64,000 bases of DNA from Eledone cirrhosa (Eukaryota), in NCBI GenBank assembly GCA_964016885.1, contig OZ024742.1, forward strand, positions 193,874,001 to 193,938,000, in the 5' to 3' direction. Of this stretch, positions 18,497 to 21,536 are shown one piece after another. Positions within the stretch are counted from its first letter, which is position 1. Each line of letters begins with the position of its first letter. Position numbers and translations under genes: made by a program. The notes under the pieces are model-generated. The model was not told the DNA's origin, ran no database searches, and worked only from the letters and a program-made list of their open reading frames with translations.

Positions 18497-19020
18497 ATTA
18501 GAAAGTGAGGTTTTTTTTTTTTTTTTTTTTTTTTTACAAAATAAAGACTACAGAATAGTTTTCCAAATAAGGGCGCAAAAATGTAATGAAAACTTGTTCA
18601 CGTGACAGCCAAATTTCATTTATAACCAACCAAAAAAAAAGCCTTCGTGAGCCTCATTTTTTCAAGTAAAAAGAAATTCAAACACTCATATATGAAAAAA
18701 CAACCTGTGACAACCCCCCCCCCCCTCTCTTATTTGAAGAACTATTGTAACGCGAACTGGCGCGAAATTTATTATAATTATTGACAAACCAATCAAACTA
18801 CTTCTCGAAAAACCTTTTTTTCGAGCCACTTTTTCCATATAAAACAAGCAACATTTAGAGACCAACCAGATGTGAGAAAAACCACAGACCCTCCATCTCA
18901 ACTCACCTTTTGAAAAGCAGAAGAACTGCGAAACCGGTAAAGGAACCAAATAAATATATATATTTTTAAAAAAAAATAAGAGTTCAGTTGCATTTTCGAT
19001 TTCATCCCTTTTTCTTTATA
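18497..19020. mobile_element. HHR-bearing element, family J (tail stub plus inverted arm)
   Basis: Starts with TTAGAAAGTGAG-polyT-ACAAAAT like 21628 and 57902. 18875-19020 is the reverse complement of those copies. Confidence 0.8.
18906..18943 (+). ncRNA. Minimal hammerhead with U3-A8 variant core
   Basis: CCTT-TTGAAAA-GCAGaagaaCTGC-GAAAC-CG-GTA-AAGG. Confidence 0.8.
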
Positions 19021-19366
19021 TATATATATATATATATATTCTGAGGGAGTTCAATGTGATACGATGCGTGACCTTCAAATTAAAGATACACCTTTATTTG
19101 GCTTTATTTATCTCAATGATTTCTAATTGCATTTTACTGCAATGCGCTCTAGTATGGAAATATAATTCTAAACACAATAGAAAAAAAAAATATATATATA
19201 TATATATATATATATATATATATATATATATATATATATATATATATATATATATATATATATATACAGTATATATATATTTTCTATTGCGTTTAGAATT
19301 ATATTATATATATATATATATATATATATATATATAATGTATAAAAATCAATACAATATAATTACC

Positions 19367-19432
19367 CCATTACCAGAGGTTTCCCGAATGAGGCGAATAC
19401 GAAAGAAACGTCTTCATTCGTTCTTCAGACGA
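19367..19432 (-). ncRNA. Type I hammerhead ribozyme
   Basis: TCGT-CTGAAGA-aCGAATGA...TCATTCGg-GAAAC-CTCTG-GTA-ATGG, next to a (TA)n tract. Confidence 0.7.
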
Positions 19433-20198
19433 GGCAATATAAAACATGGGTAAATACTTGGAAAGTCTCATCAAGAAAAGCAAAAAAAAATATATAGACA
19501 AATGAATTACAATATGAAATATATAAAAATCTTTCAAGAAATATAGTTAGGTGTGTGTATATGTATGTATATGCGCTCACAGATGTGCATATATATGTAT
19601 GCACAAATGTATACGTATAGTAAAAAAGTGTGCGTAAATATATATTTTTGGGCAAATGTATCTGTGTATCTGTAAACTAAAGACAGAATAGATACATCAT
19701 AAGAATATGAAGGCACGCGCATAAACGCACCTACACACACGTACACTTATATGGTGAAGTAAAAGAGGTAAGGGAGTGTAATAATTAAAGGAAAGTATCA
19801 ATCTCGATATATTTATAAAATTGGAACAATAATTTAGAAAGAAAAAATTAAAGAAAAGAAGACAAACAAGGTACACGCATACACACACACGTATATCTGC
19901 CAAAAGAAACACAACAAAAAAAGAAATGGAAAGTATATATATATATATATATATATATATATATATATATATATATATATATATATATATATACTTTCCA
20001 TTTCTTCATATAAAGCCTGAAACCAGAAAGACATTTTGAACCTCGAATCTGTCGTCGTTTCCTTGAACTATATATATATATATATATATATATATATATA
20101 TATATATACATATATATATATATATATATATACATATATATATATATATATATACATACATACATATATATATATATATATATATATATATATATATT

Positions 20199-20315
20199 GA
20201 AGGCGTGTGGCTGAGTGATTAGAGAATTGGATTGACAATCTTGAGGTTGTGAGTTCGATTCCTGGACCGGGCGATGCGTTATGTCCTTGAGCAAGGCACT
20301 TTATTTCACGTTGCT
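20199..20315 (+). mobile_element. tRNA-derived CORE-type SINE
   Basis: TGGCTGAGTG...GAGTTCGATTCC...TGTCCTTGAGCAAGGCACTTTATTTCACGTTGCT. Confidence 0.8.
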
Positions 20316-20866
20316 ACTTCTACCTGGAGTTGCGACCAATAGATAGTATTACCAACTGGAAAGACCAACGGAAACATTGTTTCCCCGGTTCGATTTGACG
20401 AAAGTCGATCGTTCCTTAAAATATATATATATATATATATATATATATATATATATATATATATATATATATATATATATATATGTATATATATATATAT
20501 ATATGTATTCTCCACACACAGGCTATAACAATCATATAAAGAATTCATCACCAGATCAACCTCCTTAACACTCTCGATTACCTGCTTAAGTGCTTCTATT
20601 ACACGTAACTCTCTGCCACACTATATAAACAAGACGCACGTGCTTGCCACACATATAACTTTTGCACTCTATAACCGCTTAATTTCATGTTGTTTTTTAA
20701 CCTGTATTTTGTATTGTATTTTTGATTGTATCTTTTGAATGTAATCTCTAAATGTGTGCTGCCTCACTAAATGCTATAATGAATGTTGACCCACAATATT
20801 CGCATATGTATCTGTATGTCTCTTGGGTGAAAAGGAGGTCATATAAGTGTTCATTCAATAATAAAT

Positions 20867-20913
20867 TGCTCCAAAGAATCCAAACCTCGGCTTGGAGGAA
20901 ACAGTTGTAAGCA
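20867..20913 (+). ncRNA. Decayed hammerhead at the end of a probable Penelope-type 3' UTR (about 20510-20965)
   Basis: TGCT-CCAAAGA (core mutated)-TCCAA...TTGGA-GAAAC-AGTT-GTA-AGCA. Confidence 0.45.
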
Positions 20914-21090
20914 TAAAAATGTTTTGAACAGTTCTTTGATTCTTATAATTCATTTATAATTCATATATACATATATATATATATATATATATATATATAT
21001 ATATATATATATATATATATATATATATATATATATATATATATATATATATATATATATATGTATATATATGTATATATATATATATAT

Positions 21091-21536
21091 ATGAAAAGTG
21101 TAATTTTCTACACAAAACGAAGGTTATAGAGAAAATTGAGGTTGGTAATGGCACATGGAATATATAAGAGACAGAATACTTTTTTGTGAAAAAACATAAT
21201 TTTATAAGGTAAGGAAATAATAAAGGGTATAAAAAATGACCGGTTTCGATGGGTCTGCAGGCAGTCAACCTGTTGTTGCTACCTAGATGAAAACTGCTAT
21301 GAAATCCCACAATGAATTTTATACTTGAATTTTCAAGTCTCAAATTTTAACTCTTCGTATTATTAATTTTTCTTAATATTAATCAACATTTGAAAAGATG
21401 GCTTTTGCAGACCCATCGAAACCGGTCATTTTTTATACCCTTTATTATTTCCTTACCTTATAAAATTATGTTTTTTCACAAAAAAGTATTCTGTCTCTTA
21501 TATATTCCATGTGCCATTACCAACCTCAATTTTCTC
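21091..21536 (-). mobile_element. Fold-back HHR element, family K
   Basis: Inverted arms of about 130 bp at 21128-21258 and 21406-21536, an unpaired tail at 21091-21127, and microsatellite flanks. Confidence 0.85.
21385..21432 (+). ncRNA. Hammerhead with U3-A8 variant core
   Basis: TTGAAAA-GATGG...CCATC-GAAAC-CG-GTC; stem I is weak (AACAT/ATTTT). Confidence 0.7.

Follow-up and report, generated by a model that had tools for sequence, protein, structure and literature searches.

Hammerhead-type sites in the window

The window analyzed here is a stretch of 64,000 nucleotides (nt) of the Eledone cirrhosa genome (3.0 Gb, 33% G+C). It covers positions 193874001 to 193938000 of contig OZ024742.1 and contains many (TA)n runs. 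It harbors copies of a hammerhead-type motif with the palindromic helix III ACCGGU and a core that reads TTGAAAA or TTGATAA in place of CTGANGA. The sites are quite probably hammerhead motifs in the 3′ region—the pseudo-long terminal repeat (pseudo-LTR)—of a clade of Penelope-like elements (PLEs) in which U3–A8 stands for C3–G8, and they are predicted to self-cleave.

The string GAAACCGGT, which comprises the GAAA box and CCGGT, occurs exactly at 18930(+), 21239(−), 21418(+), 33978(−), and 58048(−), and TAAACCGGT occurs at 21770(−). Preceded by TTGAAAA and a stem and followed by H, GAAACCGGT is found in family J at 18910(+) and 58076(−) and in family K at 21390(+). A third family J motif, with TTGAAAA at 21798(−), has G12 changed to U. 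The initial annotation had named these TTGAAAA and TTGATAA sites together with their shared ACCGGT stem III, and all of them are present where it placed them.

J copy 1 (18541–19022, + strand) is the 5′-truncated 3′ region of a J-type PLE that runs into (TA)n and is 96% identical to positions 1178 to 1654 of the genomic locus L002. Its hammerhead motif at 18906–18943(+), CCTT/TTGAAAA/GCAG-AAGAA-CTGC/GAAA/CCGGT/A/AAGG, matches the descriptor described below. Stem I is formed by CCTT (18906–18909) and AAGG (18940–18943); the core TTGAAAA (18910–18916) is followed by helix II GCAG/CTGC within 18917–18929, by GAAA (18930–18933), and by CCGGT (18934–18938). H17 is the A at 18939, after which the cut is predicted. 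J copy 2 (21630–21834, − strand) belongs to a CTAC subtype and has (TA)n at 21556–21629. Its motif at 21802–21765 features TAAA instead of GAAA—the change of G12 to U at 21778—and ACTT instead of CCTT. J copy 3 (57903–58112, − strand) is a complete short copy with (TA)n on both sides; its motif at 58080–58043 has the same letters as that of copy 1, and the predicted cut lies 143 nt from the 3′ (TA)n.

The K copy at 21261–21536(+) is the 5′-truncated pseudo-LTR or 3′ region of a young K-type PLE, and its positions 21330–21530 are 100% identical to 40 of 40 scored genomic copies. The K motif at 21388–21429(+), AT/TTGAAAA/GATGG-CTTTTGCAGAC-CCATC/GAAA/CCGGT/C/AT, matches the descriptor as well. 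It features TTGAAAA at 21390–21396, GATGG and CCATC with a loop of 11 nt within 21397–21417, GAAACCGGT at 21418–21426, and as H17 the C at 21427, after which the cut is predicted. This copy adjoins, head-to-head, an inverted, 5′-truncated K copy at 21093–21260(−), the reverse complement of 21400–21536 plus the 3′ end of the element. The inverted copy is broken off inside the motif and keeps only its 3′ half (GAAACCGGT at 21247–21239) without the TTGAAAA box, which explains the orphan string at 21239(−). The 3′ region of a third PLE family, M, is represented by a decayed copy at 33760–34130(−) with TTGATAA at 34007–34001 and GAAACCGGT at 33986–33978. Helix II of this copy (site 33973, − strand) is broken and reads TGCCG...ATACT, unlike the family majority, which keeps TGCAT...ATGCT.

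The type-I descriptor requires the core, a helix II of at least 4 bp, GAAA, a palindromic helix III, H, and a helix I of at least 2 bp. Over the window it yields three U3–A8 matches from two families and two canonical ones (48326, + strand; 45678, − strand), and no C3–A8 or U3–G8 match. Dinucleotide shuffles of the window (300 in number) contain a mean of 0.013 U3–A8 matches, and none contains two or more. The U3–A8 sites of the window are thus real and above chance, with a descriptor that is post hoc, having been written after the hits had been seen.

The K element

As judged by its repeat structure and protein domains, the K region represents the pseudo-LTR of a very young PLE of high copy number with a reverse transcriptase (RT) plus a GIY-YIG domain at the C-terminus. 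A query of 201 nt around the K motif gave 787 first-look candidates in the genome, and all 40 that were scored are 100% identical to it. A frame with a GIY-YIG domain adjoins some of the K copies. The C-terminal part of open reading frame (ORF) 2 (192 aa) gave 24,420 first-look candidates, of which 150 were scored at 98 to 100% identity; a 777-aa open frame is present in more than 20 of these 150 loci. In 24 of 30 fetched loci, the 38-nt K motif recurs letter for letter and in the same orientation 1.0 to 1.3 kb downstream of the ORF2 match; within the 1.5-kb flank of the remaining six there is none.

The whole layout is visible in locus L128 (G000:C1:92676000–92683200). Direct repeats at 1466–1835 and 6136–6506 (99% identical) flank ORF1 (319 aa) and ORF2 (758 aa), placing two direct K copies 4.67 kb apart, and an inverted K copy with a 696-nt arm at 92% lies upstream. 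Downstream of ORF2 come the 3′ untranslated part with a (TG/TA)n microsatellite, the K region of approximately 500 nt, and then (TA)n; in the K-type element, the microsatellite, situated in front of the K region, is 0.3 to 1 kb long. ORF1 matches no Pfam family. Searched separately, the middle part of ORF2 gives RVT_1 at 24.2 bits (E 3.2e-5), which is below the cut-off of 29.6, and the C-terminus gives GIY-YIG at 26.9 bits, above the cut-off of 22.6. Searched as a whole, the 758-aa ORF2 gives no RT or GIY-YIG match in Pfam: nothing at E ≤ 0.01 and only GalBD_like at E ≤ 1. Look-alikes in the Atlas carry HTH_animal, DUF8422, GIY-YIG, and RVT_1, which serves as a lead only.

K ORF2 hence carries RT—as a subthreshold RVT_1 match—followed by a GIY-YIG endonuclease in one frame, and the element features pseudo-LTRs from partial tandems, an inverted 5′-truncated upstream copy, and microsatellite targets. 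This layout is the same as the canonical PLE architecture as published, which combines these three features with a hammerhead located close to the 3′ end (PMC8557442, PMC4209133). Head-to-head truncated copies are likewise described as a PLE insertion architecture (PMC8557442). Apart from the K motif, neither strand of the 4,671-nt unit of the K element contains a hammerhead-like candidate. Contigs of four runs compared with the K region contain no variant inside the motif and no ends, and they gave no sequence of other organisms that could be used.

Families J, M, and N

J copies are 88 to 98% alike, have variable 5′ ends and (TA)n at the 3′ end, and often have a head-to-head partner. In longer copies the similarity extends approximately 1 kb further upstream, to an ORF2-like frame; the J ORF in L002, upstream of the J region, is 58% identical to residues 590 to 755 of K ORF2 and gives GIY-YIG at 30.9 bits. 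An older J subfamily (J-old, as opposed to J-young) has 2,532 candidates. The pattern TTGABAA...GAAACCGGT brought out two further families. Family M has the consensus TTGATAA-U-GCAU-AAAA(A)-AUGC-U/A-GAAACCGGUA and a shorter relative, M2; the M query gave 2,213 first-look candidates, 40 of which were scored at 93 to 100% identity, and most sampled copies carry the helix II GCAT/ATGC. Family N has the consensus TTGAUAA-GAUG(A/G)...CAUC and, aligning with K through the flanks, is classed by sequence as an older relative of K.

Of the M loci, 12 of 29 contain an ORF2-like frame; the figures are 10 of 30 for J-old, 3 of 28 for J-young, and 1 of 29 for N. Where checked, the frame is located upstream and on the same strand. 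The frames beside J, M, and N are mostly 35 to 58% identical to K ORF2, with a protein identity of about 48 to 58% between the J and M elements and the K element. The predicted cut lies at a distance of 143 nt (J), 145 nt (K), 193 nt (N), and 200 nt (M) from the 3′ (TA)n. By eye, the 3′ ends of J, K, M, and N read TTT(T)C(W)A(A)TATA. When the final 40 nt of the families, or the stretches preceding and following the motif, are aligned locally, the scores do not exceed those of shuffles (z ≤ 1.4). At least three PLE families (K, J, and M), as well as the older K relative N, carry the motif close to their (TA)n-flanked 3′ end. Since PLE frames lie beside copies of J, M, and K, all families named in the initial annotation are classed as 3′ regions of related PLEs, and in this sequence context the sites are parts of such regions and not free-standing ribozyme genes.

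Genome-wide state of positions 3 and 8

Census counts are sums of forward and reverse matches, and the control is the same pattern read backwards. Genome-wide, TTGAAAA-N8–26-GAAACCGGT occurs 20,083 times versus 20 in the control and TTGABAA...GAAACCGGT 3,426 times versus 42. The search for TTGANAA, a stem, and this half-motif, which had been proposed along with the sites, hence gives 23,509 matches versus 62 in the reversed control. This excess of approximately 380 times, together with the rarity in the shuffles, bears out the view that the motif is a real hammerhead-type element and not a product of chance. The single-variant cores amount to approximately 1% each: TTGANGA (U3–G8) occurs 205 times versus 48 in the control and CTGANAA (C3–A8) 252 times versus 34. 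These matches are mostly scattered J, M, and N copies; apart from them, a few small strings recur in which helix II is not clear. CTGANGA (C3–G8) in combination with the ACCGGT helix III occurs 123 times, below its control of 164, and mostly in a repeat without helix II; in this genome-wide count there is no C3–G8 relative with this helix III. Three C3–A8-like strings in front of GAAACCGGT were observed: the recurrent CTGAGAA-AGGAG...CTCCT-TCC-GAAACCGGT, the likewise recurrent CTGAAAA-CGTGTGTT-GAAACCGGT, and CTGAAAA-AGCAT-ATA-ATGCT-GAAACCGGT, which features a perfect 5-bp helix II.

Over 762 kb of fetched loci plus the window, loci that are biased toward the U3–A8 families, the descriptor finds 48 U3–A8 and 5 C3–G8 matches and no C3–A8 or U3–G8 match. 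The five C3–G8 matches have other palindromic helices III: ACGT (twice), ACTAGT, and ACACTGT (twice).

The state of the families was determined on samples drawn with whole elements as queries, independently of the motif; three J-old rows, namely that of the query copy and those of two loci that were duplicates, did not enter the count. TTGANAA is carried by 40 of 41 copies in J-young, 26 of 31 in J-old, 27 of 30 in M (in each case as TTGATAA), and 23 of 29 in N; of the J-old copies, 25 of 31 have TTGAAAA. A comparison of core conservation between K and N relied on N copies that the motif pattern had selected; it was discarded in favor of the element-based sample.

These samples bear on the reading that the families have a CTGANGA consensus and that the window copies are mutated individuals, which had been named beforehand as the outcome that would overturn the proposal. 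Two J-old copies with CTGAAGA (L131) and CTGATGA (L130) appear to speak for such independent decay and were considered as C3–G8 ancestors, as does the heavy CpG decay in old copies. The two copies were, however, found by a search with the CTGANGA pattern and were rejected as ancestors, given that TTGAAAA prevails among the element-based J-old copies. TTGANAA dominates every element-based sample and, therefore, the sites are not explained by independent decay from CTGANGA; together with 23,509 U3–A8 against 123 C3–G8 matches with this helix III, the latter under its control, the counts refute this reading, which is barely conceivable. U3–A8 is thus the state of the family and not a matter of decay in single copies. 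The initial annotation had claimed fixation in two or three families; the family-level state holds, but the families may not be independent of one another, J being related to M and K to N. U3–A8 may accordingly have been fixed once or twice and not three times.

Decay in old copies of J, M, and N strikes most often at the motif's CpG sites, namely C11.1–G12 and the helix III CCGG, with CTGCG changed to CTGTG, CCGG to CTGG or CCAG, and TCG to TCA. This decay suggests germ-line CpG methylation of these repeats.

Constraint on the core and the helices

The core was compared among 15 representative genomic copies of J, K, N, and M, which were picked with the motif intact. Fifteen letters are invariant in 15 of 15 representatives: U3, U4, G5, A6, A8, A9, G12, A13, A14, A15.1, the letters C, C, G, and G, and U16.1. 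All 15 hence carry the letters of a hammerhead core (U4, G5, A6, and A9; G12, A13, and A14; A15.1–U16.1; H17 not G). Position N7 varies among A, U, and C, and H17 among A, C, and U, with G never occurring at H17. The pairs of helix II are GC-CG-AU-GC in J, GC-AU-UA-GC in K and N (with an additional GC in K), and, in M, GC-CG-AU-UA preceded by U-U or U-A. Three different Watson–Crick pairs are seen at each of two positions, and pairing is kept across the lineages. In J, K, and N, helix II has 4 to 5 bp and the G10.1–C11.1 closure known from hammerheads. Loop II has a length of 4 to 13 nt, and helix I has four contiguous pairs in J, three to four in M2, two in K and N (AT/AT in K), and one in M1b. 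A MAFFT alignment placed gaps beside the core and put helix II out of register; the helix pairs were therefore counted by script, and the alignment was not used for pair counts.

Outside the motif, J versus K and M versus K give no alignment above shuffles (z ≤ 1.4), and J versus M aligns around the motif only (z 8.3). With proteins that are approximately 50 to 58% identical, the 3′ regions are positional counterparts that have otherwise diverged past recognition. Between lineages, changes are confined to the letters that a hammerhead leaves free—N7, H17, loop II, and the helix sequences—and this pattern is what hammerhead constraint predicts for such sequences. The double change at positions 3 and 8 had been claimed to be compensatory and the ribozymes to be selected. 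A core that is kept across PLE lineages with unalignable flanks argues for selection in the source elements, and this part of the claim is supported; the change as an event is not seen, there being no C3–G8 relative with ACCGGT in the census. Positions 3 and 8 thus covary between element clades, with everything required by a hammerhead retained, and this is read as selection acting on the motif within the source elements; individual copies decay freely.

The same data bear on a chance look-alike in A+T-rich repeats that was multiplied by transposition. TTGAAAA is an easy word at 33% G+C, and a whole repeat library could contain an accidental match to a loose descriptor; the shuffle rate of 0.013 per 64 kb gives an estimate of less than one match per few Mb of distinct sequence. 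However, the motif recurs in lineages with unalignable flanks and with helices II that are different yet pair. In addition, it always lies 143 to 200 nt from the 3′ end of elements with RT and GIY-YIG, the place at which PLEs are described to carry a hammerhead (PMC4209133, PMC8557442). An origin by chance is, hence, very improbable.

Folding and predicted cleavage

The ACCGGU helix III is a palindrome that allows for no hairpin and can form only between two copies. The minimum free energy (MFE) structure of the J monomer forms helices I and II, and that of the J dimer is a double hammerhead with an intermolecular ACCGGU helix III at −22.5 kcal/mol, as compared with −15.0 kcal/mol for two monomers (2 × −7.5). 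The letters U3 and A8 keep the potential to pair, and in these RNAs U3 would pair with A8 as C3 pairs with G8. A route from C–G to U–A via a U–G wobble is conceivable, both steps being transitions toward A+T in a genome of 33% G+C.

Helix III would form by pairing of two motifs through ACCGGU, whether these lie on separate RNAs or within the transcript of a partial tandem. Self-cleavage would probably take place as a dimer or with the help of the protein of the element and would trim element transcripts. The ends of the unit-length RNA would arise from the cut after H17: cuts in the upstream and the downstream pseudo-LTR of a partial tandem would release it, and in L128 the upstream cut would lie approximately 170 nt before ORF1. 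Cleavage by the motifs is predicted and considered likely.

Several observations weigh against this interpretation. The K fold is not the predicted optimum: the hammerhead-compatible monomer has −5.5 kcal/mol and lies 3.5 above the optimum of −9.0 kcal/mol, and the hammerhead-compatible dimer has −19.9 kcal/mol and lies 4.2 above the optimum of −24.1 kcal/mol. M has U-U or U-A at the place of G10.1–C11.1, followed by 4 bp, and helix I is very short, the single pair of M1b being the extreme and two pairs meaning little in A+T-rich sequence. The conservation of the core was seen in representatives with an intact motif. Copies are mostly solitary or head-to-head on opposite strands, so that most are without a partner in cis; the first 100 TTGAAAA places listed, counted by eye, contain 23 (−,+) pairs and no (+,−) pair within 6 kb and no same-strand neighbor within 1 kb. 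The Rfam hammerhead models give no match to J, K, and M segments at E ≤ 10, and on the window Rfam gives no match at the gathering score. In the E-value scan of the whole window, the output was dominated by (TA)n stretches that resemble microRNA families; the result for J, K, and M comes from scans of small segments. Minimal PLE hammerheads are described to cut poorly in vitro (PMC4209133), and for an Anolis PLE cleavage is described as requiring the protein of the element and as not being necessary for in vitro insertion (PMC11167929). Clades of PLEs that have no hammerhead are reported to proliferate well (PMC8557442); copy number therefore proves nothing about catalysis, and the high copy number found here shows only that U3–A8 does not stop the spread.

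These points leave room for a hammerhead-derived RNA element that no longer cuts and is kept for recognition by the reverse transcriptase or another factor, or for ACCGGT and TTGAAAA as DNA or protein-binding signals. The suboptimal K fold, the short helix I, the silence of the Rfam models, the dispensability of cleavage for in vitro insertion in another PLE (PMC11167929), and the success of clades without hammerheads (PMC8557442) fit such an element. The fixed letters, however, are the catalytic ones—G5, A6, G12, A13, A14, and an H17 that is never G—and go beyond the needs of a hairpin, the free letters are exactly N7 and H17, and U–A at positions 3 and 8 is reported to be active in vitro (PMC3088659). 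An element that has lost cleavage is, hence, considered unlikely, and hammerheads predicted to self-cleave are preferred.

Relation to known hammerheads

The initial annotation treated the U3–A8 core as rare, which was an overstatement, as were the independence of the families and the activity that it assigned to the sites. Several natural hammerheads have U3 and A8 as a covariant of C3 and G8, and cores of this kind are described there as already known to be active in vitro (Perreault et al. 2011, PMC3088659); in PLEs, the same covariation is described for Cercyon of S. mansoni with approximately 1,300 hits (Cervera and de la Pena 2014, PMC4209133). The core swap was thus published in 2011 and, for PLEs, in 2014, and is no new discovery. 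The claim that CUGANGA-type searches miss these sites is substantiated by the Rfam result.

The features described for PLE motifs in PMC4209133—palindromic helices III, a short helix I, an unpaired nucleotide before helix II, and motif pairs on opposite strands—are all seen here. As in Cercyon, the motif lies in the pseudo-LTR of a PLE with the core pair U3–A8, and thousands of mostly single copies occur together with opposite-strand pairs 100 to 700 bp apart. G10.1–C11.1 is kept as in the motifs of that report (in J, K, and N), and positions 15.2 to 16.2 are palindromic. Helix III is, however, the 6-nt palindrome ACCGGU and not the 4-nt minimal form described there. Unlike in Cercyon as described, U–A is the only state found with the ACCGGU helix III, and is present in at least three coding PLE families, one of which (K) is near-identical across its copies. 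The small palindromic helix III, a helix I down to 2 bp—the length described for D. virilis Penelope—a longer helix II, and the high copy identity under recent PLE expansion are shared with D. virilis Penelope and the motifs of fly, rotifer, shrimp, and mosquito. U3–A8 is not reported for these in the account compared, the comparison being by description only (PMC4209133).

The natural hammerheads of PMC3088659 share the change of C3/G8 to U3/A8, but are described as mostly stand-alone with a stable helix III, whereas the motifs studied here belong to retroelements and are predicted to depend on a dimer. This weak or palindromic helix III, which should need a second copy, and the link to PLE pseudo-LTRs resemble the dimer-dependent type-I hammerheads of satellites and metazoan retrozymes described for newt and Schistosoma (PMC4209133, bioRxiv 10.64898/2026.07.22.740005). 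Those are described as head-to-tail tandem arrays, whereas the copies studied here are dispersed or head-to-head. Head-to-tail repeats of a few hundred nt, as in metazoan non-LTR retrozymes, were not found: there is no same-strand neighbor closer than 1 kb among the first 100 places listed.

Other hammerhead-like and retroelement features

The two canonical CTGATGA type-I hammerheads of the window (48326–48366, + strand; 45678–45638, − strand) feature the helix II GTCCC/GGGAC and the helix III ACACTGT. They lie within inverted repeats of approximately 280 bp that are 2.6 kb apart and end at (TA)n, and they give Hammerhead_HH9 at 25.4 and 20.3 bits, respectively, below the gathering score of 52. 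The sole match of the K element ORFs to the window is a divergent frame at 40847–41872(−), so that both canonical sites are without a recognizable PLE ORF beside or between them. The divergent PLE frame itself spans 40586–42178(−) and is 24% identical to residues 406 to 703 of K ORF2 (E 2e-5). In the 3′ part of this divergent PLE, at 40075–40005(−), an 8-bp pair of TAGGTATT and AATACCTA flanks ...GAAACATATGTC without a CUGANGA box and without helix II, which looks like a hammerhead with its 5′ half deleted. Canonical minimal PLE-type hammerheads were also seen in the flanks of fetched loci: CTGATGA-A-GGAC-TAGC-GTCC-GAAACGT-T with a bulged A and the palindrome ACGT, and another with ACTAGT.

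A short island between two (TA)n runs at 48447–48500(+) reads ...GTCGAAACGGTTTGAGCTC... and may be a fragment of another hammerhead-bearing repeat. The open frame at 61656–62213(+) gives RVT_1 at 51.7 bits (cut-off 29.6) and belongs to another, unrelated retroelement. A tRNA-like stretch near 20200–20275 was not confirmed, as ARAGORN finds no tRNA in the window.

Implications for Penelope-like elements

With approximately 23,500 copies in at least four families and two deep lineages, the 3–8 pair can be U–A over long evolutionary time. Standard CUGANGA descriptors and Rfam models accordingly under-count hammerheads in animal genomes, and sites of the present kind are to be annotated as PLE 3′ regions and not as independent ribozyme genes.

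More tentatively, and somewhat against the odds, this PLE clade may have run on a U3–A8 hammerhead while its proteins drifted to approximately 50 to 58% identity. On this view, the U–A core combined with the palindromic 6-nt helix III would amount to a fully functional alternative hammerhead, co-adapted with its element and acting as an obligate dimer or with the assistance of protein. For the question of what the hammerhead does in PLEs, the young K element, with many open frames and a variant core, would be a convenient subject. If U3–A8 is fully working, K, with its thousands of near-identical copies, would offer a natural setting in which to test the role of the PLE hammerhead.

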